The notes beneath the pieces were generated by a model. That model made no database searches. It saw only the letters and a list, made by a program, of their open reading frames with translations, and had not been told where the DNA came from. A DNA stretch of 64,000 nt from Ignavibacteria bacterium. GTDB taxonomy: Bacteria > Bacteroidota > Ignavibacteria > UBA10030 > SZUA-254. Positions 6,358 through 47,614 of this stretch are shown here, piece after piece (the stretch's first letter is position 1; every line of letters starts with the position of its first letter). The stretch is from NCBI GenBank assembly GCA_003235555.1, contig QJVY01000092.1, forward strand, positions 17,257 through 81,256. The letters run 5' to 3'. The translations under genes were made by a program, and so were the position numbers.

Positions 6358-6413
6358 AAGTACCGAAGAGAGTGCAACGGGCGTGCCAGTCCCGTCCGGG
6401 GGGCGAACGAACG

Positions 6414-7458: not shown

Positions 7459-7497
7459 CTGGATCGACTCATGCCCTTGATAATCGCCCTACCCCGC

Positions 7498-8613: not shown

Positions 8614-8667
8614 CGTACTCTTCTCCTCATGATAAAAATTTTCCGAAATCCTGTCCGCGGCCCGCGC

Positions 8668-9807: not shown

Positions 9808-11093
9808 AGTAATCCGAGCTGGTGGTGGAACCAGTAACTGACCTTCAGGAACCCCCGCAGGTCGCTGTCCATGAACCTGTTGTTCAGCATCTGGACCTGG
9901 ACATCGAAAGAGAAATGGTCGGCGGGCCTGACCACCGCCCCGAGAGATCCGGCGAACATCGTCTCATCCGGCGACCCCGCCTCGAGCCGGTAACTCGAGT
10001 AGGAAATTGCCGCGGTGGGAACGAGTTTTCTCTCGAGGAGGGGATACATCCCCTGGAGGTAGAACGAGCTCAGCTCTCCGGCGTAACCGTTGGACCCGCT
10101 GTAACTGACGGTGAAATACGTCGTGGTCAACCCCGCCGAGAGCCGGCGGCTGAGGTCTCCATCGTACCCCACGTACGCGAACCGCGCGGAGGCCCGGAGG
10201 GTGCGGGTGAACGCGTACTCCACGCCCCCCTCGTATTCCCGGACCGGCGACAGGGGAAACATGGTGAAAAACGAATTGTAGGGAACCGCGGGTTCGCGGT
10301 AGATGAAGTTCGCGAGGAAGGTGAACTGCGCGGTGATCGCGGCCCGGGCGTTGAGTTCGCCCCTGCGGGTCCGCTCGAGGTTCAGGTCGTAGTCGTAGCG
10401 GCCGTAGAACGATGTCCCGCTCCCCGCGTCGTGGGACGCGTCCACCCCGAACAGTTGCGTCGCCCTCGATCCCGGAGAAATCAGCACCATGACCGGGTTG
10501 AAGAGGGAATCCGCCCGGAGGGTTTCGTATTCCTGCCGTTCGATCCTGCGGTTCACGTAGCTCACGCCGAGGCGGGTACCCGGTGCGATTTCTCCCACCG
10601 CCTGCGCCCCGAGCAGAAAATTTTTGTCCAGGTCGCGGTTATGGTCGTAGACAAGGGAGCCCGGCACGTTCGACCCGCCGTATACTGAAAACGACAATTT
10701 GTTTTCGGCCGCCCTGATTTTGACGAAGCCGCCATCCACACCTCCGACACCCACGCCCGCGAAGACCGGCACCCGGCCAAGCCGGAGTTCAAACGTCCGA
10801 TCGCCGTTGCGATACTTCGCGAAGAGGTTCCGGACACGGAGCTCCGCCCCGTCGCCGATCGACTCGGAGAGGGACGCGGTCCCGAAGACCGACGTGGAGA
10901 GCGTGAAGTTCCCCTGGTTGACGTCCACCTGGAAATTCTGCATTCCCAGGAGAACGTTGCCGGAAGCGCCGACGGTGTCGAATTTTTCCCAGCCGTAGAG
11001 CGATGTGGAGAAGCGTCCGTTGATTTCCTGGGCGGCCGCGGGGAGGGCGAGCAGCACGATCCCGGCGACGAACGTCCGGAGTGCGGTGCGCAT
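9804..11093 (-). CDS. Outer-membrane beta-barrel protein, the putative porin of a porin-cytochrome conduit.
   Basis: Signal peptide MRTALRTFVAGIVLLALPAAAQE. Alternating hydrophobic beta-strand pattern throughout, with an aromatic C-terminal region (KVSYWF). No cofactor motifs. Start taken at the in-frame Met (11093); the ORF track extends to 11123. Confidence 0.55.
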   Translation of the reverse strand: MRTALRTFVAGIVLLALPAAAQEINGRFSTSLYGWEKFDTVGASGNVLLGMQNFQVDVNQGNFTLSTSVFGTASLSESIGDGAELRVRNLFAKYRNGDRTFELRLGRVPVFAGVGVGGVDGGFVKIRAAENKLSFSVYGGSNVPGSLVYDHNRDLDKNFLLGAQAVGEIAPGTRLGVSYVNRRIERQEYETLRADSLFNPVMVLISPGSRATQLFGVDASHDAGSGTSFYGRYDYDLNLERTRRGELNARAAITAQFTFLANFIYREPAVPYNSFFTMFPLSPVREYEGGVEYAFTRTLRASARFAYVGYDGDLSRRLSAGLTTTYFTVSYSGSNGYAGELSSFYLQGMYPLLERKLVPTAAISYSSYRLEAGSPDETMFAGSLGAVVRPADHFSFDVQVQMLNNRFMDSDLRGFLKVSYWFHHQLGLL

Positions 11094-11323
11094 GCTGGCC
11101 CCTGTGAGGGGGAATGCAATCATGAGAATGCTTTAGAAGTCCGATCGCCGAATTGGTGGTGTGACACTACCCTTACGATCATCCGAAGTGAATATCCGCA
11201 AAAAAACAAAAAGATACAATGGAAGTATTGAAGATTTTTACACTGTGCCGGGACGGATTATCGAAAATCCGACCACTTCGGTCGGAGAATAAACCTCCGG
11301 CGATATCCTTCCTCCCGGGGGTA

Positions 11324-11377
11324 GAAATAAAAATCGGACGCGCGAGGGGAGGGCCTCTTCCTCCGGAACGCGCGTCC
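11324..11377 (-). terminator. Rho-independent terminator of the first T9SS cytochrome gene.
   Basis: Minus-sense GGACGCGCG-(24 nt)-CGCGCGUCC, a 9-bp perfect GC stem, followed by GAUUUUUAUUUC. Confidence 0.6.
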
Positions 11378-11468
11378 GATCATCCACCAGTGTACAGATT
11401 CAAGACCGACTGCAGAGTATCGGCCTGTACGGGCCCCGGAAACCCGGGGCCCGCCGGTCCGTTTAAGA

Positions 11469-13586
11469 CTATTTCAGCAGGATCATTTTCTTCACGGAAC
11501 TGAACTCCGCGGTCTGCATCCGGTAGATATAGATACCACCGGCAACATCCTTTCCCGACCCGTCCCTGCCGTCCCAGGAGACCTGGTACACGCCCGGAGC
11601 GTAAGTCCCGTCCATGAGCGTTGCGACCCTGGCACCGAGGACGTTGAAGACTTCCACCCTCACTTCGCCGCTCTTCACCATCCCCACCTTAAAGGTTGTC
11701 GTCGGGTTGAAGGGGTTCGGGTAGTTCTGCGTCAGGACGTATTCCGCGGGTAGCGGTTCGTTCCCGGAGAAATCGATCCCGGTCAACTGGTTCACCGTTG
11801 TCTGCAGGAGTCCGATCACGTATTTGGGATTGTGGGCTCCATGGCTGTGGTCCTCCACGACGTAGAGGTAGTTCCAGTAGACCTGTTTGAGGAAGACGGA
11901 ATCCGGCTCCTCACCGATCAGCGCCCGCGTGATATCGGTGCTGCCGAAGGGGGGAAGCTGCATCGCGATCATGTCGAGGAGCCCATCCACCTCGTGCATG
12001 AACGGTTCGAGCGTTCCGTCCTTGTCGTAGTCGACCGCCGCGACGATATCCGAGAACTCGGTGATCCCCGTGTGGCATTCCACGCACTTGGTCACGTTGT
12101 TGTACTCGACGGAATCCGGGCCCTCGTACTCCATGTTCCAGCTGTGACCGCCGATCTGGTCGCGTGCGACGCTGCCGGTGTCGGGCGTCGGAGACATGTG
12201 ACACCCCACGCAGAGATCATCCACGAGCCGGTGGCCGATGCTGATGGGGATCTCCTGGCCGAAGGTATACCCGTTCTGGCCGAGGAAAACATCGGTCGCG
12301 CCGCGATGGTGCGGCCCCCTGAAACTGGACGCCCGCGTGTTGGGGATGTACGATTCGGGTTCGCGACGATATTTATGACAGTTGGTGCAGAGTTTCCCCT
12401 TCCCGAAGAAAGTCTCGCCGGCATAGGAATAGCCGTTCGCGAGGGTGTCGCTCCCCGGGGGTGTGACCCGGAGTTCGGTCGAGTGGGGATTGTGGCAGGT
12501 CTGACAGGTCATTTCGGAACGTGTCAGTTTGCTGTATCCCGACGATATCCTGTTGTCGAAAGGTTCGCCCTTGGTGAAAGCGACGAATCCCCCGCCGTCG
12601 TGGCAGCGGATACAGGCATCCAGCGTGTAGTTTGTGACGAGCGTGTCCGCGTCGGAGTCGTAACTTCCCGACCACGGTGGGTTGGCATGGCCGGAATTCG
12701 ACCACATCGAATAGAAATTGTGCCGCCACGGTTCATCGTGGCATTGTCCGCACATTTCCGCTTTCATGGTCTTCGGCTGGGTGCCGGGACCGGCATGCGC
12801 CGGATTTTTCGGGCCGTGGCATTGCTCGCATCCGATCCCTGAAAGAAGGGTCATCGTTTTTTTGTCGGTTGTGAGCAGGGAATCGTAGAGACCCGGCCTC
12901 CAGGGCATCCACTGCGTGTCCACGAATCCGACCGCCTGTTGGACTTCATCGAATCCGCCGTTATTGGCGCTGAGGTTGAACCCCGTCGTATGGCATTTGA
13001 AACAGGCCTGACCCCAGTACGAGCCGTTGTCGCCGTTCATGCCCTTCTCGAATTTCTTTGCGTGCCCCGATTCCGACCATGCGGCGTACACCTCTGGCTT
13101 CACCGACGAGTGGCACGTCTTGCAGTTGAATGCGCCCCCGCCCACGTCGTGGCGGTCGACGCCGATGAAATTCGCGGCGACGATGTTCACCGACGTGTCA
13201 ACTCCGCCGATCGTCAACCGGACACTGTAGGTACCGGCAGAATCGGTGTGCAATGTCGTCCACTGTGTGGTCGTGGAATCCAAAACGGCTGCGGAACCCG
13301 CCGGTTTCGAGAGGAGCTCCCAGAGGTAATCCGCTCCCGGGGCGTAGTTCTGTCCGTCGGAAACGTCCCACCCCGAGAGGAAGACACGCGTTCCCTTCCC
13401 CACAAGTGGGAGACCGGTGGTCACGTTGTCATGCTCGTTGGGGTTTTCGAAACCCATCTCGCCGAGCCGATGGGGGCTCATCGGTTCGATCTTGATTGCC
13501 GTCGCAGTCGTCTGCGCGGACACCCCGCCGACGGCCAGGAACAGAAAGAGAATGGAAAGGGTGGAAAACAGTATCATTTTAGCCAT
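11469..13586 (-). CDS. Extracellular nine-heme c-type cytochrome with a T9SS (Por) C-terminal sorting domain; paralog 1.
   Basis: Signal peptide. CxxCH motifs CKTCH, CFKCH, CEQCH, CGQCH, CIRCH, CQTCH, CTNCH, CVGCH and CVECH. The C-terminus ...LTQNYPNPFNPTTTFKV...IYIYRMQTAEFSSVKKMILLK is a Por_Secre_tail-type CTD. Confidence 0.85.
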   Translation of the reverse strand: MAKMILFSTLSILFLFLAVGGVSAQTTATAIKIEPMSPHRLGEMGFENPNEHDNVTTGLPLVGKGTRVFLSGWDVSDGQNYAPGADYLWELLSKPAGSAAVLDSTTTQWTTLHTDSAGTYSVRLTIGGVDTSVNIVAANFIGVDRHDVGGGAFNCKTCHSSVKPEVYAAWSESGHAKKFEKGMNGDNGSYWGQACFKCHTTGFNLSANNGGFDEVQQAVGFVDTQWMPWRPGLYDSLLTTDKKTMTLLSGIGCEQCHGPKNPAHAGPGTQPKTMKAEMCGQCHDEPWRHNFYSMWSNSGHANPPWSGSYDSDADTLVTNYTLDACIRCHDGGGFVAFTKGEPFDNRISSGYSKLTRSEMTCQTCHNPHSTELRVTPPGSDTLANGYSYAGETFFGKGKLCTNCHKYRREPESYIPNTRASSFRGPHHRGATDVFLGQNGYTFGQEIPISIGHRLVDDLCVGCHMSPTPDTGSVARDQIGGHSWNMEYEGPDSVEYNNVTKCVECHTGITEFSDIVAAVDYDKDGTLEPFMHEVDGLLDMIAMQLPPFGSTDITRALIGEEPDSVFLKQVYWNYLYVVEDHSHGAHNPKYVIGLLQTTVNQLTGIDFSGNEPLPAEYVLTQNYPNPFNPTTTFKVGMVKSGEVRVEVFNVLGARVATLMDGTYAPGVYQVSWDGRDGSGKDVAGGIYIYRMQTAEFSSVKKMILLK

Positions 13587-13647: not shown

Positions 13648-13663
13648 CGCAAAAATCATGCCG
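13648..13663 (-). promoter_or_regulatory. Sigma-54 (-24/-12)-type promoter candidate for paralog 1.
   Basis: Minus-sense CGGCATgatttTTGCG, with GG and GC separated by 10 nt, about 62-77 nt upstream of the start at 13586. Confidence 0.4.
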
Positions 13664-13811
13664 TTGAAAATTTCAACACTTTTGGGGAAATTGGCGAGTT
13701 TTTATACTCTGAAAAGGGGGGAATTTCTCAAATCTGAGGAGTTGGGTGTGTTAACCCTCTGATGCACGGATCGGGGCGGAAGGACCCCCTTTCGGGGATA
13801 TCATGGGTGGA

Positions 13812-13862
13812 GACAAAAATCGGACGCGTGAAAGAGGGACTTCTCCTCCGCAACGCGCGTCC
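13812..13862 (-). terminator. Rho-independent terminator of the second T9SS cytochrome gene; a duplicated copy of the 11324-11377 element.
   Basis: Minus-sense GGACGCGCG...CACGCGUCC stem (1 mismatch) followed by GAUUUUUGUC. About 75 nt of flanking sequence is shared with the paralog-1 terminator. Confidence 0.5.
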
Positions 13863-13952
13863 GATCATCCACCAACGTACAAATATCTTATTTGACCGGA
13901 GAGTGCCGGCCCCGAGGGCCCCGCGTTCGCGGGGCCCTCGGCCCGATTACAA

Positions 13953-16052
13953 TCATTTCAGCAGGATCATCTTCTTCACGGAGCTGAATTCCGCGGTCTT
14001 CATCCGGTAGATATAGATGCCGCCCGCCGCATCCTTTCCGGAGACATCCTTGCCGTCCCACGTTACCTGGTAGACGCCGGGAGGATAGGTCCCCTCCATG
14101 AGTGTCGCAACCCGGGCGCCCAGGACGTTGAACACCTCAACCGTGACCTCTCCCCCCTTCGCCATCCCCACTTTCATGGTCGTGGTCGGGTTGAAGGGGT
14201 TCGGGTAGTTCTGCGTCAGGATATACTCCGACGGAACCGGCTCGTGGCCGCTGAAATCCACGCCCGTGAGGTTGCTGAGGGTCACCTGGAGCAAACCGAT
14301 GATATATTTCGGGTTGTGCGCCCCCTTGCTGTTGTCTTCCTTCACGTACGCGTAGTTGTAGTAGACCGCTTTCATCCGCGCGGAATCGGGATCCGCTTCG
14401 ATCAGGGCGAAATCGATGTCCGTGCTTCCGAACGGCGGCAGCCCCAGCTCCACCATTTCGAGGAGGCCTTCGACTTCCATCTGGAAGGGTTCGGTGGTGC
14501 CGTCCATGTCGTAGTCGAAGCCCGCGACGATATCGCTGAACTTGGTGATACCGGTATGGCACTCGACGCACTTGGTGATGTTGTCGTACTCGACTCCACC
14601 TTCGACATACTTCTGCGTCCAGCTGTGGCCGCCGATCTTGTCGCGGGCCACGGTGCCGGTATCCGCCGTCGCCGACATGTGGCAACCGACGCAGAGGTCG
14701 TCCACCAGCCTGTGGCCGATGCTGTTGGTCAGCGTCTGGCCGAAGGTGTAACCATTCTGCCCGAGGATAACGTCGGCCGCGCCCCGGTGGTGCGGACCGA
14801 AGTGGCTGGAGAGGCGCCCGAGGACGTATGTTTCAGCGTCCCTCCGGTATTTATGGCAGTTGACGCAGATCTTGCCCTTGCCGAAGTTGAACGCCGAGTA
14901 GTCGTACCCGTTGCCCAGAGTATCGCTGGCGGCGGGGGCAACTCTCAACGAAGCATCGTGCGGATCATGGCATGTCTGGCAGTTGATCTTCGTGTGCGTC
15001 AGTTCGCCATATCCCGACGAAATCCGGTTGTCGAAGGGTTCGCCCTTCGTGAACGCCACGAAACCCGCGCCGTCGTGACAGCGGATGCAGGTGCTCAGGC
15101 CGTATTCGGTGACCGGGTTGGCGCCGTCGCTGTCGAAACTACCCGACCAGACCGCCTCGGCGTGGACCGAGTTTTCGAATTCGGAGACCTTGTTGTGCCG
15201 CCACGGTTCGTCGTGGCACTGTGCACAGAGAAGGAAGTCCATCGATTTGGGCTGCGTCCCGGCTCCCGCGTGCGCGGGGTTTTTCGGACCGTGGCAGTTT
15301 TCACAGCCGATACCGGCGACCATGCTCAGCTTGGCCTGGGGGGTGGTGAGCAACGAATCATAGAGGCCGGCCCTCCAGGGTGTCCACTCGGTGTCCACGA
15401 ATCCGAGCGCCTGGGCGACGTCGTCGAACCCGCCGTTGTTCGCGAACTCGTTGTAACCGACCGTGTGGCATCCCCAGCAGGACGGACCCCAGTGGTCGCC
15501 CCACACGTTGTTCAATCCGTTCTCCCACATCATCGCGTGCCCGGAACCGCTCCACTTGCTGACGATCTCGGGGGTGGCCCCGTTGTGGCATGTGAGGCAG
15601 TTGAACGCCCCGCCGCCCACGTTGTTCCTGTCGGCTCCGATGTAGTTGGCCGCAATGATATTGATGCTCGTGTCCTTGCCGCCGATCGTCAGTTTCACGG
15701 TGTAGGTTCCGGCCGAATCGGTATGCAGTGAGGTCCATTGCATCGTGGTCGAATCGAGTATCGCCGCCGAGTTCGCCGGCCGCGCGGTCAGCTCCCAGAG
15801 GTAATCTGCCCCCGGCAGGAACTCATCACTACTGACGTCCCAGCCCGAGAGGTACACCCAGGTGCCTTTTCCCACGACGGGCAGGCCCGACGTCGTGTTA
15901 CCGGCGCCGTTGGCGGATTCGAACCCCATCGTCTCGAGACTATGAGGGGTCAGCGCCTCGATCCTGATGGCAGTCCGCTGGGCGAAGAGATCTCCCCCGG
16001 TTGCGACCAGGATACACATCATGATTACCGCAAACAGTATCGATTTTTTCAT
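13953..16052 (-). CDS. Extracellular nine-heme c-type cytochrome with T9SS C-terminal sorting domain; paralog 2.
   Basis: 699 aa, collinear with 11469-13586. Nine CxxCH motifs. The CTD ...LTQNYPNPFNPTTTMKV...KKMILLK is near-identical to that of paralog 1. Confidence 0.85.
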   Translation of the reverse strand: MKKSILFAVIMMCILVATGGDLFAQRTAIRIEALTPHSLETMGFESANGAGNTTSGLPVVGKGTWVYLSGWDVSSDEFLPGADYLWELTARPANSAAILDSTTMQWTSLHTDSAGTYTVKLTIGGKDTSINIIAANYIGADRNNVGGGAFNCLTCHNGATPEIVSKWSGSGHAMMWENGLNNVWGDHWGPSCWGCHTVGYNEFANNGGFDDVAQALGFVDTEWTPWRAGLYDSLLTTPQAKLSMVAGIGCENCHGPKNPAHAGAGTQPKSMDFLLCAQCHDEPWRHNKVSEFENSVHAEAVWSGSFDSDGANPVTEYGLSTCIRCHDGAGFVAFTKGEPFDNRISSGYGELTHTKINCQTCHDPHDASLRVAPAASDTLGNGYDYSAFNFGKGKICVNCHKYRRDAETYVLGRLSSHFGPHHRGAADVILGQNGYTFGQTLTNSIGHRLVDDLCVGCHMSATADTGTVARDKIGGHSWTQKYVEGGVEYDNITKCVECHTGITKFSDIVAGFDYDMDGTTEPFQMEVEGLLEMVELGLPPFGSTDIDFALIEADPDSARMKAVYYNYAYVKEDNSKGAHNPKYIIGLLQVTLSNLTGVDFSGHEPVPSEYILTQNYPNPFNPTTTMKVGMAKGGEVTVEVFNVLGARVATLMEGTYPPGVYQVTWDGKDVSGKDAAGGIYIYRMKTAEFSSVKKMILLK

Positions 16053-16117
16053 ATGAGTGTCCTGTCTAGTTACAGTGAATGGTGAATTTTCGATCGAGTG
16101 TGTTTATCACCAAAAGG

Positions 16118-16132
16118 GCAAGAATTATGCCA
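16118..16132 (-). promoter_or_regulatory. Sigma-54-type promoter candidate for paralog 2.
   Basis: Minus-sense TGGCATaattcTTGC, 66-80 nt upstream of the start at 16052. This is the same spacing as the paralog-1 motif. Confidence 0.45.
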
Positions 16133-16329
16133 CGGTGACGGCCTGTACAAAAAATGTTTGGGGAGCTGAATTACGGTGGAAGGATGCCGGGGAGAAGAAA
16201 GTGATCAATACACCGCCGGATCGGTGTCGAAATTTTCAACAACCTCTGGATGAAGGGAAGTCCCCCACTCTCGGGGGGAATCCTGTTCTCACACCTGAAA
16301 GGGGGTGGGGGTAATGGGTTAAAATCCCC

Positions 16330-16368
16330 AAAAAAAACCCGGTATGGATGCCGAACATCCATACCGGG
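16330..16368 (-). terminator. Rho-independent terminator of the tetraheme cytochrome gene.
   Basis: Minus-sense CCCGGTATGGATG-uucgg-CAUCCAUACCGGG, a 13-bp perfect stem, followed by UUUUUUUUGGGG, starting 26 nt after the stop. Confidence 0.75.
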
Positions 16369-16393
16369 AACAGGTACGAAGGGATCGTCCCCT

Positions 16394-16936
16394 TTATTTC
16401 TTCGGAACCCGGTGCTCGATCTGCGGCCACATCTTGGCGTATTCGAATTTCTTCGCCGTCGGGCTCTTCTCGTTGTGGCATGTGACACAGAGCGCCGTGA
16501 TCGCCTTCTCGTCCTCGTACATCAACAGGCCGGCTTTTTCGGCTTTCTTCGCGTCCTTCATCGTCGCCATGTTCTTGTATCCAGATCCTGCACCGTGGCA
16601 CGATTCACACTGTACACCGTCCTTGACGTCGAATTTCTTGTCGAGCAGTTTGGCATCGGCGGTGATCGTGTGGCATCCCAGACACTCGGGTGTTTCAACG
16701 GCCTTCGTCTTGAATCCCTTCTTGGTGGCGATGGCGTCCGCTTCCTTCGTCAGGAGCACACTGTAGGCCTCGGAGTGTTTGCTCTTCGACCAGATCTCGA
16801 ATTGTTTACCCTGCTTTTCAGTATTGTGGCACATCTTGCACGTCGTCGTGCCCACGTATGTGTTCTGGGCGCTCGTGAGGGATGACAACACGAAGATGAG
16901 GCCGGCCAGGAGGGCGATGATTGTGAATCTGCTCAT
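16394..16936 (-). CDS. Periplasmic tetraheme c-type cytochrome.
   Basis: Signal peptide MSRFTIIALLAGLIFVLSSLTSAQ. CKMCH, CLGCH, CESCH and CVTCH in 180 aa. Confidence 0.8.
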   Translation of the reverse strand: MSRFTIIALLAGLIFVLSSLTSAQNTYVGTTTCKMCHNTEKQGKQFEIWSKSKHSEAYSVLLTKEADAIATKKGFKTKAVETPECLGCHTITADAKLLDKKFDVKDGVQCESCHGAGSGYKNMATMKDAKKAEKAGLLMYEDEKAITALCVTCHNEKSPTAKKFEYAKMWPQIEHRVPKK

Positions 16937-17049
16937 GGGGATCTCTCTTTCTTGTGTGAATTGGAGGTTTATGTAAAAGACTCTCGTACCGTGGATAAAT
17001 TTATGGTTTTTTCAGCTCATTTTCCTCAATCAAACCTACCAACTAATAC

Positions 17050-17065
17050 TGCATATTTCGTGCCA
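17050..17065 (-). promoter_or_regulatory. Sigma-54 promoter, near consensus, for the tetraheme cytochrome.
   Basis: Minus-sense TGGCACgaaatATGCA (GG-N10-GC), about 115 nt upstream of the ATG at 16936, in an AT-rich intergenic region. Confidence 0.5.
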
Positions 17066-17121
17066 TTACCATCAATATGAAAAAGGCACGAATTTAACCG
17101 TTTTTCAAAATTTTCACTCGC

Positions 17122-17170
17122 GCATCCGGATGAAACTGTCTTCTTTTTGAGAAATGATTATCCCGGATGC
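17122..17170. promoter_or_regulatory. Inverted repeat, a candidate enhancer-binding-protein (UAS) site.
   Basis: GCATCCGGA-(30 nt)-TCCCGGATGC, located 60-110 bp upstream of the sigma-54 promoter at 17050-17065. Confidence 0.25.
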
Positions 17171-17216
17171 ATATCCGACCGGAAAAAAGCCGGTATTGGA
17201 GGGTTCCGGGGGCACC

Positions 17217-17633
17217 TCAATTCACGGAGTTCAGGATCTTCCGGACGAGTGAAACCATAAAGTTGAGGTTGAACGGTTTTTCAACGAAATAGTCCACCAT
17301 CCTGCTTTTCCCCACCTCTTCGAGTGACTCCTCCCCGTGTTCGATCGCCAGTACGAGGGGGGTCCTCCCCGAGATCGTCTTGATCCGCACCGCAAGTTCC
17401 AGGCCGTCCATCCCGGGGAGGTGGTAGTCGCTGATCACAAGGTCGACCGGTCCCTCGTTGAATTTCCGGAGAGCATCCTCGCCGCATTCCACGACATCTG
17501 GATCATAGCCGGCGCGCCCGAGGGCGTTCGCCATTGACCAGCCCAGGAGCGCTTCGTCTTCGACGATCAGGATCTTCTTGACATCCCGTGAGGGTACGGG
17601 TGGCGGGAGGGAATATGGTGAATTATTCAGCAC
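17217..17633 (-). CDS. Stand-alone response-regulator receiver (CheY-like).
   Basis: KKILIVEDE...DLVISDYHLPGMDGLEL...K receiver motifs. 138 aa with no output domain. Confidence 0.75.
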   Translation of the reverse strand: MLNNSPYSLPPPVPSRDVKKILIVEDEALLGWSMANALGRAGYDPDVVECGEDALRKFNEGPVDLVISDYHLPGMDGLELAVRIKTISGRTPLVLAIEHGEESLEEVGKSRMVDYFVEKPFNLNFMVSLVRKILNSVN

Positions 17634-17667
17634 CGTAACCGGTTGCGATCTGTGTGCGTACAGGAAG

Positions 17668-17682
17668 GCAAACTTTATGCCA
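17668..17682 (-). promoter_or_regulatory. Sigma-54-type promoter for the stand-alone receiver gene.
   Basis: Minus-sense TGGCATaaagtTTGC, 35-49 nt upstream of the start at 17633. Confidence 0.45.
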
Positions 17683-17804
17683 CCGCCAGAAAGGGGGATT
17701 GAGGCGTGGGTGTATGGTTATCGGCCGGTGGCGCGTAAGGGCACTGATCGTGATGACCCGTTTGTGTCAAATCACCCAGAGAGAGGCTCCGGTGCCGCGG
17801 ATGG

Positions 17805-19165
<1,361 letters not shown>

Positions 19166-19166
<1 letters not shown>

Positions 19167-20689
19167 TACGATTTGTCCTTCGCGATCTCCCCGGGATCGA
19201 CGGGGAGGCGTACACGGCAGGTCGTCCCTGCCTGGTCCCCGCTTTCGAGGGAGATGGTACCATGGTGCTGTTCAACGATGCGCCGGGAGATGGTCAGCCC
19301 CAGACCGGTCCCCTGGTGCTTGGTCGTGTAGAACGGCCTGAAAATATTTTCACGTTCGGCCGGGGCGATCCCCTTCCCGGTGTCGCGGACGGTCACCGTC
19401 ACCGACCCGTTCCCGCCCTCGGTCGCGACGCTCACCCGCCCACCGTCGTCGGCGGCCTGCACGGCGTTTAAAATGACGTTCCAGAGGAGCTGCTGGAGGA
19501 GTTTCCTGTCCGCCGTCAGCCGCGGCAGCTCCCTGTCGAGCGACAGGTCGACCGTCACGTTTTTCTTCAACGCCTGCGAGGTCATGATCGAGACCGTCCG
19601 GTCGATGATGCCGTTCAGGTCGGTGAGGTCGAACCTGGGCGGGGAGGGCCTCGCGTAGCTCAGCAGGTCGTTGACCGCGAGGTTCATCCGCTCCATCTGC
19701 ACCATCATCTCCTGGAGTATCGGTTTGTTCGGGTCGACGTCGGCCAGGTCTGAATCGATCACCTGGAGCGCCCCCAGGACCCCCGCCAGCGGGTTTCGGA
19801 TTTCATGCGCCATGCTGGCCGCCATCTCACCGGTGGTCGCCAGCCGGTCGGCGTGCTCCAGCTGTTCATGGTGGAGTTGATGGAGGCGCCCGTGGGCCTC
19901 GTTCAACCGCTCCACCAGTGTGTTGAACGTGGTGATCAGGTCGGAAATTTCATCGTTTCTCGGAGACGGTTCCAGCGTGGAAAAAATCACCGGCTGCCCC
20001 TTTTCGACCCCCGCCAGCTGGTTCTGCAGCGTCCCCATCCGCTGCCGCAGAGTGGAAACGGGCCGGATCACCAGGACGAGCAGCGCCCCGGAAATGACCA
20101 GGCCGATTCCGCCGAACGTCACGATCGTCATCAGGATGTTCATCGTCCGGTGGTTCATGGACGCCTCCTGGATGTGGCCCATGGTGATCTTGACGGCCAT
20201 GTATCCGAGGACAGGTGCGGTGCCCGCGTGACATCCCGAGCAGCTCGGTTTCCTCTCGAGCGGCGTGAGGACGTACTGGAAGGGGGTCCCATCTTCCGTC
20301 CGCGAGAGGAACATCCCCCCGGGGAAACCTTCGCTCTCCCGGTACTCCGAGATCCGGAAGACCCGTCCGGAACTGTCCGGTACCGTGCTCACGCTGATTC
20401 CACCGTCGGGTTTGAGTAAGAACAGTGCCGCGATGTGGCCGGTGGAGTCTATCGTCCGCATGGCCGCCTGGAGGTGACTTTTTTCACCCTGGAGCATCAT
20501 GAATTCCACCACCCCCCTGCCGTACCGTGCGAGCGTGTACGCCTTGTCCCGTCCGTACTCGTTCAACATCTCCGTGCCCGTCCTGTAGGCGAAGTACGCG
20601 AAGCTGCCGCCGGCCACGACCAGGGCCGCCGCGACCGCCGCGATCATCTTCCGCCCGACGGAGTTGAATATTCGGGGGAGCATGGTCAT
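19166..20689 (-). CDS. Sensor histidine kinase with a heme-c (CxxCH) motif in its periplasmic sensor domain.
   Basis: TM1 at about residues 15-35 and TM2 at about 183-208 flank a ~145-aa periplasmic domain containing CSGCH. The cytoplasmic part carries HisKA (HEIRNPL) and HATPase_c. The start overlaps the ccmF stop by 4 nt, and the stop overlaps the NtrC start by 1 nt. Confidence 0.85.
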
Positions 20690-22944
20690 ACCATGGTCAC
20701 TGCGTCCGACTTCAGCCGTTTGACAAATGCGAGCAGGGTACCCCCGATGATGAACACGACGCCCGTCCAGAGCACCATCATCATCGGGATCATGCTGACA
20801 TCCAGCAGGAGCGCGGTGTTCTGCGGGGAGGACTCGTCCCCCTCGAAACCATGGAATTCCAGCAGGATTTTTTTGGCCTCGACCTGCATGCCGGCCAGGA
20901 TGACCTGGGGTTGCACCGTCCCCTTCGAGGGGTTGACCAGGGCCGGCAGGTCGACGGGCCCCGATTCCCGTTCACCGTTGCGGTTGAACGCGACCGTGGG
21001 GACGACGGAGTGGTCGTTCCCGTGGACGGGAACGTTGAGAACCGCTCCCACCATCATCGCGCCGGACTCGCTGTGCTGGGTCATGTCGAACTTCCGGAAC
21101 TCGATCTCGTAGCCATTGATGGATTTCTTCTCCCCCATGACGAGCTCCAGGGACGGATGGTTGTGGCCGCCCCCCGAACCCTGAAGTTCCATCGGGGAGA
21201 GGTAGAGGTCCTTGAGGGGCAGGACCCTGATGTGCGGCTCGCGCATGACACCCTTGTTGTATTCGCTGTAATAGAGTTTCGGCGTGGCCGCGAACTTCGA
21301 GACCCCGTCGGAGATTTCCAGGACGACGACGTTTTTCGCGTCGGGGGCCGGCTCCATGCCCCTGAAGGTGACGTCATAGCCGAACACACTCTGAGGCTCG
21401 TTCTCCTTCAACAGCACCTTCCGTGATTCCGTGAAGTTCCCCGATCCGACGATCCCGAGCATCAGCAGGGCCGCTCCGATGTGGCCGATCGGCCCGCCGA
21501 GCCCCAGGAACCCTGAGCGGTACTGCCTGAATGCAATGATCGAATTGCTGATCAGCGCGAATGCCGACATCGCGGTGAACAGGAGCATCATCGGCTCGGT
21601 GACGCCGGCCACGAACGCGATGACACCCCCAAGGACCGTCAGCACCAGCGGCAGGGAAAGCCGCCTCAGCAGCGACGCGGTATTGTCCCCCGCCCAGCCG
21701 AGAAAGGGTGTCACGCCCAGCAGGAGCGCCATCACGATCGCCACCGGCAGGTTGACCCTGTTGTAGAAGGAGATGTCCACCTGGGATGCCTTTCCCACCA
21801 GCCCGGTGAGGATCGGCGACGACATTCCGACGAAGGTGAACGCCGCGCAGGCCGAAAGCGCGTAGATGCTGAGCACGAGGAAGATTTCCCGGTAGAACGA
21901 GTGGTGGTCCACCGGCGGCGATTTGATTTCCCGGAACCGCCTGAAAAACATCCCGAATCCGAAGAGCGCTGTCGCCAGCATGACCGCGACGAGGTAGTTG
22001 TTGATTCCGAGGTCGACGAAGGAGTGCACGGAAAAATCCGCGAGGACACCGCTGCGGGTCAGGAAGGTCGCATAGAGGACCAGTAAAAAAACGATGATGG
22101 CGAGGAACATGTTCGTCCGCCGGAGGGACCCCCTTCCCCTCTCGACGACCATTCCGTGGATGAGCGCCAGCATCATCAGCCAGGGGACCAGGGAGGAATT
22201 TTCCACCGGGTCCCACCCCCAGTACCCGCCCCATCCCAGGACTTCGTAGGCCCAGAATCCTCCGATGATGATCCCCGCGCCGAGCATGGTCCCCGCAAAG
22301 AGCGTCCATCTGAACCCGAACGTCTTCCAGGCATCGTATTTCCGCGTCGTGAGGCCGGCCATCACGAGCGCGAAGGGAAAGATCGCCGCGGCGTAGCCCA
22401 CGAACAGAATCGGCGGATGGATGGCCATCCAGGGGTCCTGCAGGAGTGGGTTCATCCCCTGCCCGTCCGGCGGTACCATCTTTGTCATCTCGAACGGGCT
22501 CTGTACCAGCATCAGGAGATGTAAAAACGCGATATAGAGGCACACCACCGCGGGCGCGACCCCGGACCTGATCCCCTGCTTATGGATTAAAACGAGTCCC
22601 ATCAGCGCCACCATCAGGGCCCAGAGGAGGAATGTTCCTTCCTGTCCCGCCCAGAAAGAGGAGATGAGGTAGAGCATCGGCAGCGAACGTGAACTGTAAT
22701 GCGCCACGTAGGCGTATTCGAAGGAGTGGGTGAGGAGATGATAGTAGAGCAGGATCGACGAAGCGATGACCGACACGGTCGCGACGTGGTAGAGCTGTAT
22801 CGCGGCACGCGGCGGCGTCCCCCCTCTATTCCCCCTTTGCGCCCGGTTTTTCGGGTCCTGTCTGCCCGGTGCGGTGAAGAAAAACCACGCGGCGCCGAGC
22901 GACGCCAGGAACGTGATGAGTATGGTCAACTGGCCGGAATTCAT
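20686..22944 (-). CDS. ccmF: Cytochrome c-type biogenesis heme lyase CcmF/NrfE family.
   Basis: Polytopic, 752 aa. Diagnostic CcmF motifs: WAGQEGTFLLWA, NPLLQDPWMAIHPPILFVGY and the WWD region WAYEVLGWGGYWGWDPVENSSLVPWL, followed by a CcmF C-terminal domain. Confidence 0.85.
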   Translation of the reverse strand: MNSGQLTILITFLASLGAAWFFFTAPGRQDPKNRAQRGNRGGTPPRAAIQLYHVATVSVIASSILLYYHLLTHSFEYAYVAHYSSRSLPMLYLISSFWAGQEGTFLLWALMVALMGLVLIHKQGIRSGVAPAVVCLYIAFLHLLMLVQSPFEMTKMVPPDGQGMNPLLQDPWMAIHPPILFVGYAAAIFPFALVMAGLTTRKYDAWKTFGFRWTLFAGTMLGAGIIIGGFWAYEVLGWGGYWGWDPVENSSLVPWLMMLALIHGMVVERGRGSLRRTNMFLAIIVFLLVLYATFLTRSGVLADFSVHSFVDLGINNYLVAVMLATALFGFGMFFRRFREIKSPPVDHHSFYREIFLVLSIYALSACAAFTFVGMSSPILTGLVGKASQVDISFYNRVNLPVAIVMALLLGVTPFLGWAGDNTASLLRRLSLPLVLTVLGGVIAFVAGVTEPMMLLFTAMSAFALISNSIIAFRQYRSGFLGLGGPIGHIGAALLMLGIVGSGNFTESRKVLLKENEPQSVFGYDVTFRGMEPAPDAKNVVVLEISDGVSKFAATPKLYYSEYNKGVMREPHIRVLPLKDLYLSPMELQGSGGGHNHPSLELVMGEKKSINGYEIEFRKFDMTQHSESGAMMVGAVLNVPVHGNDHSVVPTVAFNRNGERESGPVDLPALVNPSKGTVQPQVILAGMQVEAKKILLEFHGFEGDESSPQNTALLLDVSMIPMMMVLWTGVVFIIGGTLLAFVKRLKSDAVTMV

Positions 22945-23037
22945 GATGTATTCTCGTGATCGGTATTGGAGTGCACGTCTTCATTCGAGGGAAAGCGACA
23001 TCAAAATCCAGAATTTCTTCCCTTTCCGGGCAATAAT

Positions 23038-23052
23038 GCAATCTTTATGCCA
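23038..23052 (-). promoter_or_regulatory. Sigma-54-type promoter for the ccmF-kinase-NtrC operon.
   Basis: Minus-sense TGGCATaaagaTTGC, about 95-108 nt upstream of the ccmF start at 22944. Confidence 0.45.
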
Positions 23053-23202
23053 GAGCGGGATATCGGTCAGGACGGGTGGGTTTTTTCACCCACCCCCGGC
23101 GGAGGGGGCCCTTTTTTTCAGCGGTGAAAAATATTACATCAAAACGATCTCAGAAATGACTCGGACTCGGTATATCGAAATGGAGGGGATGATCAGGTCG
23201 GG

Positions 23203-24564
23203 CTATTTTTCGGTCGATATGGAAAGTTCTTTGATCCTACGGTATAACGTGGGCAGGCTGATTTGAAGTGATTTCGCCGTCTTTTCCTTGTCGAAATCGT
23301 TTTTCCTGAGGACGGCGACGATGTATTCCCTGGCGAGGTCGTTCACCACCTGGTCGAGGGATTTGTCCCCGTCGGCGGAGGGGACGGGCGGATAATTGTG
23401 GAAGGTGTCGGGGAGATCGGCAACGGTAATGGAGTCCCCCTTCGCGAAGATGACCGCACGCTCCACGATATTCTCCAGTTCCCGGACCTCCCCTCTCCAC
23501 GGGTGGTGGATCAGCAGGCGCATGACCTCCTGGTCGACCCCCTGCATCTTTCTGCCCATCTCCGACGAAAATTTTTCGAGGAAATGGTTGACCAGTATCG
23601 GGATGTCTTCCTTTCTTTCCGTCAGCGACGGCAGCCGGATTTCGACAATGTTGAGACGGTAGAAGAGGTCCTCGCGGAACCTTCCTGCTTCGATTTCTTT
23701 GCGGAGGTCCCGGTTGGTCGTCGCGATGAACCTCACGTCGACGGCCTGGGGTTCCGACGTCCCCACCGGAACGATTTCCTTCTGCTCGATCGCGCGCAGG
23801 AGTTTCACCTGGAGCTGGACCGGCATCTCGCTGATCTCGTCGAGCAGGAGCGTTCCCCCGTCGGCGGCCTTGAAGTAGCCCCCGCGGTCGGCGAGCGCCC
23901 CGGTGAAGGATCCTTTTTTATGGCCGAAGAGTTCGCTCTCGATGAGAGATTCGGGGATCGCGCCGCAGTTGACCGCGATGAAGGGCCTGTCGGCCCGCGG
24001 GCTGTTGGCATGGACCGCCCTCGCCACCATCTCCTTCCCCGTTCCGCTCTTCCCGGTGATGAGGACGGTCCCGTCGGTCGCCGAGATCCGCCGGACCGTG
24101 TCGAAGATCCGTTCCATCGCGGGACTCTGCCCGATGAGGTTCTTGAAGTCCACCCCACCGCTCGCTTCCTCGCGAAGGTACTGGTTTTCCCAGATGAGTT
24201 TCCTGTGCTCGAGCAGCCGCCGGATTTTGAGAGTGAGCTCGTCGAATTCGATCGGCTTCAGGATGTAGTCGTTCGCACCCTTGCGCAGCGCCGCGATAGC
24301 GGTCTCCATCGACCCGTACGCGGTGATGATCACGACGATGGTCTGGGGGCTGAGCTCCTTGATTTTTTCGAGGAGTTCCATCCCCTTCATTTCCGGCATC
24401 TCGAGGTCGGTGATCACCAGGTCGTACGATTTTTCGACGAACTTGTCGTAGGCCACCCTCCCGTTCGGGGCCTCCTCGACGCGGAACCCCTCCTTCTTCA
24501 GGATGAACGATGCGGATTCCCTGATGATCTGTTCGTCGTCGACGATGAGTATCGTGTCTGCCAT
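23203..24564 (-). CDS. Sigma-54-dependent response regulator (NtrC family), second copy.
   Basis: Receiver domain (ILIVDDE..DLVITDLEMP), then an AAA+ sigma-54 activator domain (GKSGTGKE..), then HTH. 453 aa. Confidence 0.9.
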   Translation of the reverse strand: MADTILIVDDEQIIRESASFILKKEGFRVEEAPNGRVAYDKFVEKSYDLVITDLEMPEMKGMELLEKIKELSPQTIVVIITAYGSMETAIAALRKGANDYILKPIEFDELTLKIRRLLEHRKLIWENQYLREEASGGVDFKNLIGQSPAMERIFDTVRRISATDGTVLITGKSGTGKEMVARAVHANSPRADRPFIAVNCGAIPESLIESELFGHKKGSFTGALADRGGYFKAADGGTLLLDEISEMPVQLQVKLLRAIEQKEIVPVGTSEPQAVDVRFIATTNRDLRKEIEAGRFREDLFYRLNIVEIRLPSLTERKEDIPILVNHFLEKFSSEMGRKMQGVDQEVMRLLIHHPWRGEVRELENIVERAVIFAKGDSITVADLPDTFHNYPPVPSADGDKSLDQVVNDLAREYIVAVLRKNDFDKEKTAKSLQISLPTLYRRIKELSISTEK

Positions 24565-24591: not shown

Positions 24592-26094
24592 TCAGATGTC
24601 CGTCTTCCGGGGAGCAGCGGGACGCCCGGGCGCCCCCGGCTGCGGTTTCACGCCCCCGTGGAGCGGCAGTGTGATCGTAAATGTCGTCCCCTCCCCCACG
24701 AGGCTGTCCACCCGGATTTCTCCATCGAAACTCTTGATGATCCCGTAACTGATCCAGAGACCGAGGCCGGTGCCCTCCCCCACCTGTTTCGTCGTGAAGA
24801 ACGGCTCGAAGATCTTGGCGAGGTGTTCGTCGCTGATCCCCCTGCCGTTGTCCGAGATTTCGGTGACGACGGAGTCCCCGTCGGCGCGGGTCCTGCAGAT
24901 GATTTTCCCCGTCCGTTCTCCGGGCGGCACCGCCGCGAATTTATCATCCACCGCGTCCACGGCGTTGATCAGTACGTTAACGAACACCTGCTGGATCTGG
25001 TCCGAGACCACCGCCAGGCGCGGCAGGTTGTCCGCGGTGTGGACTTCGAGGGCGACCGTTTTCGCCTTCCTGGCCACACCGACGATGGCGGTCGCTTCCC
25101 GCAGGCACGCGTTGACGTCCGTCAGCTGGATTTCGTAGTTCGAGCGGCGGGAGAAATCGACCAGGTCACGGATGATCCGCGATATCCTGTTCACCTGGTT
25201 TTTGATGAGTTCAAGCTTGTCCCGCGTGAAGGCGTCCTCGGTCGTCCTTTCCAGCACCTGCACCAGCGAGGAGATGGACGTGAGCGGATTGCCCACTTCG
25301 TGCGCGATTCCGGCCGTCAGCAATCCCATGCTCTCCATCTTCTGCGCCTGGAGGAGATGCTTCTCGAGGGATTTCTGTTCGGTGATGTCCCGGTGGATGC
25401 CGAAATATCCGACCACCGTACCGTCGCCGTCGAGGATCGGCGAAATCAGCAACTGTGTATGGAATGGTTCCCCGCCGCGTTTCCGGTTCTCCACCTCCCC
25501 CGTCCAGACCTTCCCGGCCTTGATGGTCTCCCACATCTTCTTCCAGAATATCGCGGGGTGTTTCCCGCTGGAAAAGATGTTCGGGTTCCTGCCGATGAGT
25601 TCCGCGCCGGAATACCCGCTCGCGGCCTCGAATGCGGGGTTGACGTAGATGATCCGGCCTTCGGGGTCAGTGATTTCGAGGGGGTTGACGGTGTGGTGTG
25701 CGAGGTTCGAAAACCTCAGGAAGTCGAGGTCTTTCTTCTTCTCTTCCGATATATCGCGGCCGATAGCCAGGATGACGGCTCCGTGGTCTCCCTTCAGGGG
25801 GGAAAACGAAAACGACACTACCCGTTCGTCCCCGTCATCCCCTGCGAGCGTCAATTCGGTCCCGTCCGTACCACCGGTCCCGGACTCGTCCATCGCCCTC
25901 CTGAAAGCCGCCCGTGTCGATGGTGAGAGGAACTCCTCCATAGACCTGCCCGCAGGACTCATCCTCCCTGCTCCGAGGGTCTTCATGGTGGTGGTGTTCA
26001 GGTGCACGATGGAGCCGTCGGGGTTCAGGAGGAGGCAGAAATATGGAATTGCGTCGAGCAGGGATACCGGGATGGAATCCCGTCTCGCGCTCAT
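24592..26094 (-). CDS. PAS-domain sensor histidine kinase (cytoplasmic).
   Basis: Two PAS-like regions, HisKA ([10 protein letters not shown]) and HATPase_c. No TM segments. Lies immediately upstream of the NtrC-type regulator. Confidence 0.85.
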
Positions 26095-26244
26095 CCCCGC
26101 CGCAGGAGCTCTCCTTCGACTTTTCGTTGTCTGCCGCGGTTTCGGAATAACGGACTCCCGGGATGGGTATGGAGCATTCTCAGAATTGATAAAATATAGT
26201 GTATCCGGGAGGGAATTCCAACTTACCGGGGATCCCCCGGGGCC

Positions 26245-26739
26245 TCACCTCTGGCGACGCTGGAGGCTGTCGGGCGGATAGGTGGATTTCATGTATGCCC
26301 GGGAATCCTGGACCCACGCGTTCAGAAGGTCCTTCTGTTCAATGGTGAGGGATGCGTGGCGGTGGACGAGGAGGTAGGACGGGAGGGGCATTTCGCCGAG
26401 GTCGATCTGCTCGGTGATTTCTTCGAGCTTATGGTATTGCCGTCGGAGGCTCGAGACGGCGAAATCTGAAAAGTTCAGGTGTTGTTTGGCCTCCCTGATA
26501 TGGTCGTCGAGCCACCAGCCGACCGGCTGGACCTCGAAATACCACGGGTACCGGGTCTCCTCACTGTGGCAGTCATAGCAGGACTCCCGGAGGATCGCCG
26601 CGACGGTGTCGGGAACAGGAAGAGCAGTGGAGATATCCTTCGAGAGGTCGGGCGCGGCCGTGTTCTTCTCCGGCCGGATGAACTGGACGATCACGAACAC
26701 GACGAAGAGGAGTATGAGAACGGTTTTGATGATTTTCAT
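26245..26739 (-). CDS. Single-heme 'haem-binding domain' protein (CxxCH), membrane-anchored.
   Basis: N-terminal TM/signal anchor. SCYDCHSEETRYPWYF resembles the Haem_bd domain family. Confidence 0.5.
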   Translation of the reverse strand: MKIIKTVLILLFVVFVIVQFIRPEKNTAAPDLSKDISTALPVPDTVAAILRESCYDCHSEETRYPWYFEVQPVGWWLDDHIREAKQHLNFSDFAVSSLRRQYHKLEEITEQIDLGEMPLPSYLLVHRHASLTIEQKDLLNAWVQDSRAYMKSTYPPDSLQRRQR

Positions 26740-26816
26740 GGTTCCACCTGATGGTCGCCTGATCTCAAGATAACCATTCGGGGAACAAAATCCATCATCC
26801 TACCCCCGCCGTCGGC

Positions 26817-47534: not shown

Positions 47535-47614
47535 CCTGGAAGCGTGAGTCGCAGACCGAGGTTGAACATCGTCCGTGGGAATGGTGTTGAAATAATAGTA
47601 ATAAATCGGGATTA

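Follow-up and report, generated by a model that had tools for sequence, protein, structure and literature searches.

The genes transcribed with σ54 (RpoN) in Geobacter sulfurreducens have been described as a regulon with the promoter consensus TTGGCACGGTTTTTGCT and with many NtrC-type activators (Leang et al. 2009, PMC2725144). In the same organism, the cbcBA operon and its regulator BccR form a system that is induced as the redox potential falls, and BccR-like regulators have also been noted next to clusters of the cbcBA type in the Calditrichaeota and Bacteroidetes (Joshi, Chan and Bond, 10.1101/2021.04.15.440034). For Desulfovibrio vulgaris, σ54 regulons have been computed by combining enhancer-binding proteins (EBPs) with upstream palindromes and −24/−12 promoters (Kazakov et al. 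2015, PMC4641369). Here, we describe a 64-kb stretch of DNA from an Ignavibacteria bacterium (assembly GCA_003235555.1, contig QJVY01000092.1, positions 17,257 to 81,256; the whole stretch is referred to below as the window), in which six σ54-like −24/−12 sites precede genes for multiheme cytochromes, a heme lyase subunit, a receiver-only response regulator and a hemerythrin-domain protein. Taken together, these sites are quite likely to be genuine σ54 promoters.

Porin-cytochrome clusters are known in Ignavibacteria (PMC7399161), and Ignavibacteria-like bacteria are frequent inhabitants of anodes and of iron-rich sediments. Our search of the literature found no report on the regulation of Ignavibacteria porin-cytochrome genes, no report of σ54 promoters for Ignavibacteria clusters or for cytochromes sorted by the type IX secretion system (T9SS), and no paper on σ54 in Ignavibacteria or Melioribacter. 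The island considered here would hold the extracellular-electron-transfer genes of an uncultured Ignavibacteria-like bacterium of the Fibrobacteres-Chlorobi-Bacteroidetes (FCB) superphylum with a GC content of 62%.

σ54-like sites in the cytochrome island

An earlier note on this DNA, made from the sequence alone, had listed five σ54-like motifs, and each of them was located on the minus strand where the note had placed it: CGGCATGATTTTTGCG upstream of the first of two paralogous cytochrome genes (paralog 1; 13648-13663), TGGCATAATTCTTGC upstream of paralog 2 (16118-16132), TGGCACGAAATATGCA upstream of a tetraheme cytochrome gene (17050-17065), TGGCATAAAGTTTGC upstream of the receiver gene (17668-17682) and TGGCATAAAGATTGC upstream of ccmF (23038-23052). 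The GG-N10-GC spacing is right in all of them. The listed sites are real, but the list was incomplete: a sixth site, and the strongest, lies ahead of the hemerythrin gene. All six share the GG-N10-GC spacing and have halves resembling TGGCAC-N5-TTGC.

Scoring was done with a σ54 position weight matrix (PWM), the consensus being mrNrYTGGCACG-N4-TTGCWNNw as quoted in PMC2725144. Over both strands (128 kb), the five top matches were all intergenic minus-strand sites, co-oriented with a gene whose start codon lies 17-115 nt downstream. The best, P_hem (6373-6389; CTGGCACGCCCGTTGCA, 18.8 bits), lies 17 nt before the hemerythrin ATG at 6357 and just downstream of a terminator at 6433-6419, with a predicted transcription start site (TSS) near 6362. 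It is followed in rank by P_ccmF (23037-23053; CTGGCATAAAGATTGCA, 18.3 bits), which stands ahead of ccmF and the kinase and activator genes HK1 and EBP1, and by P_tetra (17050-17066; ATGGCACGAAATATGCA, 15.8 bits), with a predicted TSS at ~17039, some 103 nt before the ATG. P_RR (17667-17683; GTGGCATAAAGTTTGCC), upstream of the receiver-only gene, and P_par2 (16117-16133; GTGGCATAATTCTTGCC), with a predicted TSS at ~16106, score 13.5 bits each. The site of paralog 1, P_par1 (13648-13664, minus strand; ACGGCATGATTTTTGCG), is weak, ranking eighth among the PWM matches with 10.6 bits; its predicted TSS at ~13637 lies ~51 nt before the ATG.

At the higher PWM thresholds, the density of such matches in the 64-kb window exceeds background, a comparison that the earlier note had proposed for the genome. 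Five matches score at least 13 bits, where dinucleotide shuffles give 0.82 on average and only 1 of 300 shuffles reaches five, and three score at least 15 bits (0.16 expected from shuffles). The simple pattern TGGCA-N6-TTGC (TGGCANNNNNNTTGC) occurs four times in the window against an expectation of 0.21, a count reached by none of 100 shuffles. With the relaxed pattern YGGCAY-N5-WTGN, eight window matches were obtained, six of them in promoter-competent positions, defined as intergenic and on the same strand as a gene starting within 250 nt downstream. Since such positions make up 3.3% of all strand-positions, the binomial P is 3.5e-8. The motif is clearly present above chance and in promoter position.

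Conservation of the sites in related loci

Relatives were sought by a protein search with paralog 2, which returned 1975 homologues graded from 87% to 37% identity, and the DNA around twelve of them was retrieved; the useful orthologous loci came from this search and from exact-protein look-ups. About 15 loci (designated here by L numbers) were compared in all, rather than whole genomes. Scans of genome and metagenome contigs with paralog 2 were swamped by the T9SS-tail pattern and yielded four full-length distant homologues (L001-L003 and L096), none of which carried the motif.

The most informative comparisons were with two loci. L082 (assembly GCA_035292425.1, labelled Bacteroidota bacterium; 65% protein identity) is fully syntenic, in the order PAS kinase, EBP, ccmF, kinase, EBP, receiver, small cytochrome, two T9SS cytochromes, and a beta-barrel gene with more cytochromes; here, the motif recurs ahead of ccmF, the receiver gene, the small cytochrome gene and paralog 2, while the paralog-1 counterpart has TTGA at −12. 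In L081 (81% protein identity), it recurs ahead of the small cytochrome gene, both paralogs and the hemerythrin gene, the last of these sites being identical to that of the window; the hemerythrin operon of L093 is preceded by CTGGCACGATGATTGAG. Orthologous sites of P_ccmF are CTGGCATACCCCTTGTA in L082 and ATGGCATATTTATTGAA in L086. For the receiver gene, the conserved block in the L082 alignment is CTGGCATA..GTTTG, and for the small cytochrome gene, TGGCACG-AA-ATGCA is the longest block conserved when the window, L081 and L082 are aligned, with CTGGCACAAAATATGCT at the corresponding site in L176. P_par2 is also kept in L081 (where −12 is TTGT), L082 and L176, its distance from the ATG being preserved (64-80 nt). 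The CGGCAY form of P_par1 is kept in L081 (ACGGCACGAATTTTGCA, 14.0 bits); its orthologues in L082, L088 and L092 have lost the GC, with TTGA as the −12 element. Throughout these alignments, both promoter halves form conserved islands, whereas the spacer and the flanks diverge. In total, −24/−12 elements are conserved upstream in L081, L082, L176, L084, L090, L093 and L177.

A count across the family gave the same picture. Within ~300 nt upstream and on the coding strand, 12 of the 17 T9SS cytochrome homologues, which come from genomes of 34-66% GC, had GGCAY-N5-WTG, as compared with 16 of 84 other upstream regions of the same loci (Fisher P=6e-5). Moreover, 15 of these 16 control matches belong to cluster genes, namely cytochrome, ccmF, receiver, hemerythrin, cytochrome-b/multiheme, small HTH_8 and short unannotated genes, leaving an outside-cluster rate of ~1 in 60 (P=2e-9), for which the denominator is a hand estimate and not a scripted count. 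The σ54 consensus is also matched at positions that had played no part in selecting the sites: of 28 sites, 23 have T at −26, 27 have a purine at −20 and 25 have T at −15. Because the motifs are conserved in relatives, they are very probably real promoters, and very probably the promoters of a regulated gene set for metal or electrode respiration. The regulon suggested in the earlier note is strengthened by the recurrence of one motif, in other genomes, ahead of T9SS cytochromes, ccmF, receiver, small cytochrome and hemerythrin genes and cytochrome-b/multiheme fusions.

Two further kinds of site were seen in the relatives. No σ54 match in any locus is stronger than TTGGCACGCTCCTTGCA (19.8 bits; L088 7719-7735, with the same motif in L092), which precedes a gene for an 89-aa HTH_8-only (Fis-type) protein beside a PAS kinase/EBP pair and a T9SS cytochrome. 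HgtR of Geobacter is a small RpoN-dependent repressor, which this gene recalls. In L084 (3451-5616, minus strand) and L092 (14847-16913, plus strand), ATGGCATACGGATTGAC and TTGGCACGGGACTTGCC, respectively, precede genes for multiheme/cytochrome-b (Ni_hydr_CYTB) fusions, the products of which are probable inner-membrane quinol oxidoreductases.

Activators, kinases and candidate enhancers

The two NtrC-family activators announced in the earlier note are encoded in the island on the minus strand, as are all genes and terminators of the window described below. EBP1 (17805-19166) and EBP2 (23203-24564) both have the architecture REC-AAA+ (Sigma54_activat)-HTH_8 and contain the ESELFGH motif. EBP1 has the Walker A motif GESGTGKE and, as the L1 loop that contacts σ54, GAFTDA, while EBP2 has GxSGTGKE and GSFTGA, respectively. 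Both AAA+ EBPs have loops of the GAFTGA type, neither of them being GAFTGA itself. The GAFTDA loop is kept in the L082 and L086 orthologues of EBP1, and GSFTGA in five orthologues of EBP2 (L082, L084, L086, L088 and L092); both are listed among the variants of functional EBPs in D. vulgaris (PMC4641369). Neither protein equals a named NCBIfam equivalog, the best scores being 427-465 bits against cut-offs of 559-760, with AtoC, NtrC and ZraR closest.

A histidine kinase (HK) gene lies directly upstream of each activator gene, as expected of NtrC-family two-component systems: HK1 (19166-20689) overlaps EBP1, and HK2 (24592-26094) precedes EBP2. HK1 is a HAMP-HisKA-HATPase protein with two transmembrane segments and a periplasmic domain (residues 33-181, ~150 residues) that contains a single CxxCH, CSGCH at residue 150, kept as CSDCH in the L083 orthologue. 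This heme-c motif in the periplasmic domain, together with the operon shared with a CcmF/NrfE-like lyase, makes HK1 a plausible heme-c redox sensor. HK2, by Pfam, is a cytoplasmic double-PAS kinase with no transmembrane segment and is the presumed partner of EBP2; the PAS kinase/EBP pair recurs beside T9SS cytochromes in L082, L084, L086, L088 and L092. Immediately upstream of HK2/EBP2, the gene at 26245-26739 encodes a Haem_bd protein (PF14376) that is anchored in the membrane, has one CxxCH and could be a signaling partner of the pair. The EBP2 operon (Haem_bd-HK2-EBP2) is without a σ54 motif, with no PWM match of at least 8 bits in 26000-27000.

Two kinds of sequence element upstream of the sites may serve as enhancers. 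The palindrome TGGGT-N6-ACCCA, a candidate upstream activating sequence (UAS-A), has five window matches at no more than one mismatch against 1.8 expected, four of them upstream of P_par1, P_par2, P_RR and P_ccmF. The copy at P_ccmF (23077-23092) is exact, lies ~34 bp upstream of the −24 element and sits within a 16-nt block, TGGGTGAAAAAACCCA, that is identical in L082. The other three have one mismatch each, at 13743-13758 (~90 bp upstream of the −24 of P_par1), 16315-16330 (~190 bp upstream of that of P_par2) and 17763-17778 (~90 bp upstream of that of P_RR). The paralog-2 copy is kept in L081 (7322-7337), L082 (9772-9787) and L176, and the P_RR copy has its counterpart in L082, TGGGTCATATGACGCA (8221-8236). 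A TGGGT-N6-ACCCA hairpin was also considered as a terminator of the EBP2 operon; its fold z-score of −1.65 is not significant and there is no U-tract, and a protein-binding palindrome fits better.

The second kind of element is AT-rich and of the form TTGAAAnTTTCAA, with seven pattern matches against 0.62 expected. One such palindrome, TTGAAATTTTCAA (13664-13676), abuts the −24 element of P_par1 and is kept in L082 and partly in L081. Others are TTGAAAATTTCGA (16227-16239), ~105 bp upstream of the −24 of P_par2, and TGAAAATTTTGA (17105-17116), ~45 bp upstream of that of P_tetra and poorly kept in L081 and L082. The related string TTGAAAW is found again at P_hem and in L081, L093 and L177, in each case 91-108 bp upstream of the GG.

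Weighing the alternatives

A number of observations speak against reading these sites as σ54 promoters and should be considered together. The weights of the PWM were approximated from the published consensus, and no rpoN gene or Sigma54 domain was seen among the ~40 open reading frames scanned in the 64-kb window. The −12 GC is normally near-invariant in σ54 promoters; in the relatives (L081, L082, L084, L086, L088, L092 and L093), the −12 element is often TTGT, TTGA or TTGG despite a perfect −24 half, and either the σ54 of this lineage tolerates a changed −12 GC or those sites are weak. The leader left by P_hem would be ~5 nt long, with the same geometry in L081, such that the hemerythrin mRNA would have almost no leader, unless translation in fact begins at a start codon further downstream. 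P_par1, with CGGCAT, is the lowest-scoring of the six, and the AT-rich palindrome abutting its −24 element is in a non-classical position for an activator. The distances of the candidate enhancers vary widely, from 34 to 190 bp, and for this reason the UAS-A and TTGAAA-rich elements are best treated as leads. Finally, the motif is missing in the more distant homologues L001-L003, L094 and L096, and L095 carries GGAAC variants; the arrangement is widespread, not universal.

Could the matches simply be chance occurrences in intergenic DNA, the GC content of which lies below the average of 62%? Whole-window shuffles do overstate the significance somewhat on that account, and at a PWM threshold of 10 bits there is no enrichment (eight matches against 6.2 expected). 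Chance would nonetheless have to account for the crowding of the relaxed matches into promoter-competent positions, for the placement of every site on the coding strand of its downstream gene and for the retention of sites at orthologous positions in genomes of 34 to 66% GC. This explanation is extremely improbable, and the comparative sequences effectively refute it. Matches to −35/−10 (σ70) promoters numbered five overall against 4.8 expected, with none in the relevant spacers. FCB-type promoters have −33/−7 elements with the consensus TTG-N17-21-TAnnTTTG, to which no match was found in ten intergenic regions; both of these nulls are weak, as the housekeeping promoter consensus of this lineage may differ from those scanned. 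An Rfam scan of 5-30 kb found no family, and the motifs thus belong to no known RNA element. A more specific alternative holds that the GGCAY-N5-TTG elements are read by a cluster-specific transcription factor or by a sigma factor of the extracytoplasmic function (ECF) type, with the neighboring σ54 activators acting elsewhere. Conservation shows the function of the elements and not the identity of the protein that reads them, and the variable −12 C and the lack of a visible rpoN in the window can both be cited in favor of another reader. Such a reader would, however, have to share with σ54 both consensus halves at the exact spacing, down to the positions at −26, −20 and −15 that were unused for selection. 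The distances from motif to start codon fit a promoter, σ54 activators accompany the clusters in at least six loci, and such activators are not known to occur without σ54. We consider this alternative improbable.

The site of paralog 1 deserves separate treatment. Its CGGCAT-N5-TTGC might not be a working σ54 promoter at all, in which case it could belong to a larger conserved operator of another regulator, of the form TTGAAAnTTTCAA-CGGCAYGA-N3-TTTG, or be read as a promoter by a different sigma factor, and paralog 1 would be expressed differently from paralog 2. Beyond its low score, the site has C instead of T at −26 and its −12 element is TTGA in three relatives; the conserved block runs 13 nt further upstream into the abutting AT-rich palindrome and ends in nnTTTG, which resembles the FCB-type −7 element. 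The resemblance is imperfect, with a TTG to TAnnTTTG spacing of 16 nt instead of 17-21 and nothing found by the FCB-type scan. The GG-N10-G spacing and GGCAY are, moreover, kept in five loci, the L081 counterpart is a good site, and altered −12 elements (TTGT, TTGA or TTGG) also occur at perfect −24 sites of the same relatives. Paralog 1 also needs a promoter of its own, given the strong terminator that lies upstream of it. On balance, this alternative is a minority view, and P_par1 is somewhat better explained as a σ54 promoter, for which we have modest confidence; for the other five sites a σ54 promoter is highly probable. The σ54 interpretation offered in the earlier note is supported by consensus match, promoter position, conservation, the absence of rival consensuses from these spacers and the local activators.

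Target genes and transcription units

The genes downstream of the five originally listed motifs proved by Pfam matches and CxxCH counts to be what the earlier note had called them. Paralog 1 (11469-13586; 705 aa) and paralog 2 (13953-16052; 699 aa) encode proteins with 68% identity to one another; both carry a signal peptide, nine CxxCH motifs and, by Pfam, a C-terminal T9SS sorting domain, which in paralog 2 also matches NCBIfam TIGR04183 with 36.7 bits, over the cut-off of 23. P_tetra precedes a small c554-like cytochrome gene (16394-16936; 180 aa, four CxxCH, signal peptide; PF13435, E=5e-17). The receiver-only response regulator (17217-17633; 138 aa) matches PF00072 only and has an orthologue in L082 (8401-8796). 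The first gene behind P_ccmF (20686-22944) encodes a CcmF/NrfE-family heme lyase subunit (PF01578 and PF16327) that matches NCBIfam TIGR00353 below its cut-off, and in the series ccmF, HK1 and EBP1 each reading frame overlaps the next, at 20686/20689 and at 19166. The target of P_hem, added here, is a hemerythrin-domain gene (5839-6357; Pfam PF01814, E=5.9e-13).

Terminators separate several of these genes. An intrinsic terminator with a 14-bp stem and a T8 run (16338-16368) follows the small cytochrome gene, and a double hairpin with a T-run follows paralog 2 (13815-13952) and, in duplicate, paralog 1 (11330-11468), with fold z-scores of −5.5 and −3.85 for the two copies. Since terminators follow the small cytochrome gene and both paralogs, each of these genes needs its own promoter. 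The duplication of the paralogs extends to these 3′ flanks, where a GC-rich hairpin is followed by ...TGGTGGATGATCGGACGCGCG...CGCGCGTCCGATTTTT, the second hairpin with its T-run.

Downstream of paralog 1 lies a porin-cytochrome-like operon (6577-11123) that begins with a gene for a predicted outer-membrane protein of 439 aa, with no Cys and no Pfam match, followed by three cytochrome genes whose products contain 12, 5 and 6 CxxCH motifs; two of these products have lipoprotein-like N-termini. No σ54-like site was found in the 345-nt region upstream of this beta-barrel/three-cytochrome operon (11124-11468), nor in the corresponding region of L082; L084 has a weak one. In L081, the beta-barrel/cytochrome genes start 58 nt after paralog 1 and are probably co-transcribed with it. 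The 293-aa cytochrome of the operon (6577-7458) matches the Geobacter CxxxxCH...CxxCH motif family PF09698, and the CcmF/NrfE-like lyase might serve the non-standard heme sites of such cytochromes. Elsewhere in the window, the products of three genes (31127-34225, 34349-36271 and 44343-47669) are predicted to be T9SS cargo or related surface proteins, with two Sortilin/BNR-repeat proteins among them (one with Por_Secre_tail) and the third an S15 X-Pro dipeptidyl peptidase with Por_Secre_tail; these are consistent with an FCB-superphylum origin of the window.

Proposed mechanism

The island would comprise six separately switched units: the hemerythrin gene, paralog 1, paralog 2, the small tetraheme cytochrome gene, the receiver-only regulator gene and the ccmF-HK1-EBP1 operon. 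At each site, σ54 RNA polymerase would bind as a closed complex, and the DNA would open only once an upstream-bound, ATP-hydrolyzing activator of the NtrC type contacts σ54. EBP2 is probably the primary switch and expressed independently of σ54, because its operon has no σ54 promoter of its own. It would activate P_ccmF and perhaps other promoters, after which EBP1 and HK1 could reinforce or diversify the response. Such a cascade is the simplest reading of the placement of HK1 and EBP1 behind P_ccmF; the same placement also suggests, as the alternative, that EBP1 autoregulates in a positive feedback.

The sequences establish the motifs themselves, with their enrichment, placement and conservation, together with the domain composition of the regulators; σ54 as the reader of the motifs, the assignment of activators to promoters and the nature of the signal are inferred. 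That the local activators serve these promoters is reasonably likely. The signal may be periplasmic or cellular redox state or the availability of an electron acceptor, a proposal to which we would give about even chances and which is suggested by the periplasmic CxxCH heme-c motif of HK1 and the two PAS domains of HK2. More speculatively, the island might represent an FCB-wide regulon in which T9SS-exported surface cytochromes are placed under a two-tier σ54 cascade, with a σ54 that accepts a relaxed −12 element (TTGN). In that scheme, the PAS kinase and EBP2 (GSFTGA) would switch on the ccmF-HK1-EBP1 operon, HK1 would sense periplasmic redox conditions by way of its own c-type heme, and EBP1 (GAFTDA) would drive the cytochrome promoters. 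We regard this wider generalization as tentative and rather doubtful; if true, the two-tier cascade would be a form of extracellular-respiration control that evolved independently of Geobacter and Shewanella.

Comparison with known systems

Several practical handles for predicting mineral or electrode respiration emerge from the island, including the two regulator pairs, the putative heme-containing sensor kinase and the candidate enhancer palindromes. Likewise, TGGCAY-N5-TTG upstream of T9SS-sorted multiheme cytochromes would provide a simple marker with which to define the regulon in metagenomes.

With respect to domain architecture, the window pairs resemble NtrB/NtrC, AtoS/AtoC and ZraS/ZraR, and the best NCBIfam matches of the kinases are AtoS and ZraS. 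The scores are nevertheless far below the equivalog cut-offs, such that these are not orthologues, and the sensory parts differ as well, with a periplasmic CxxCH domain in HK1 and a double PAS in HK2. The σ54 regulome of D. vulgaris was assembled with the same computational pairing logic, in other organisms and for other targets.

A closer parallel is found in BccR-cbcBA, where a REC-σ54-interaction-HTH regulator likewise stands beside a cytochrome operon with a σ54 promoter, and where the cbcBA operon also carries a response-regulator gene. The window has the same BccR-type arrangement, with σ54 response regulators next to cytochrome genes behind σ54-like sites. The target of BccR is, however, an inner-membrane bc-type quinol oxidoreductase, whereas those of the window are outer-surface and periplasmic cytochromes, and the island has two activator/kinase pairs and six putative promoters; the two systems are likened by architecture only. 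The σ54-like motifs ahead of cytochrome-b/multiheme fusion genes in L084 and L092 bring some of the relatives closer to the cbcBA case.

The broadest likeness is to the RpoN regulon of G. sulfurreducens, in which σ54 promoters have been predicted or shown ahead of genes that include cytochromes of extracellular electron transfer; those of the window are predicted from sequence. The window belongs to another phylum, and its targets are T9SS-sorted cytochromes, a dedicated CcmF/NrfE-like lyase and a hemerythrin. To a specialist, extending the link between σ54 and respiratory cytochromes from Geobacter to a second, distant phylum will be unsurprising, an ordinary but useful step. The mechanism and the physiological theme are the same as in Geobacter, and what is new is the phylum, the targets and the proposed two-tier arrangement.

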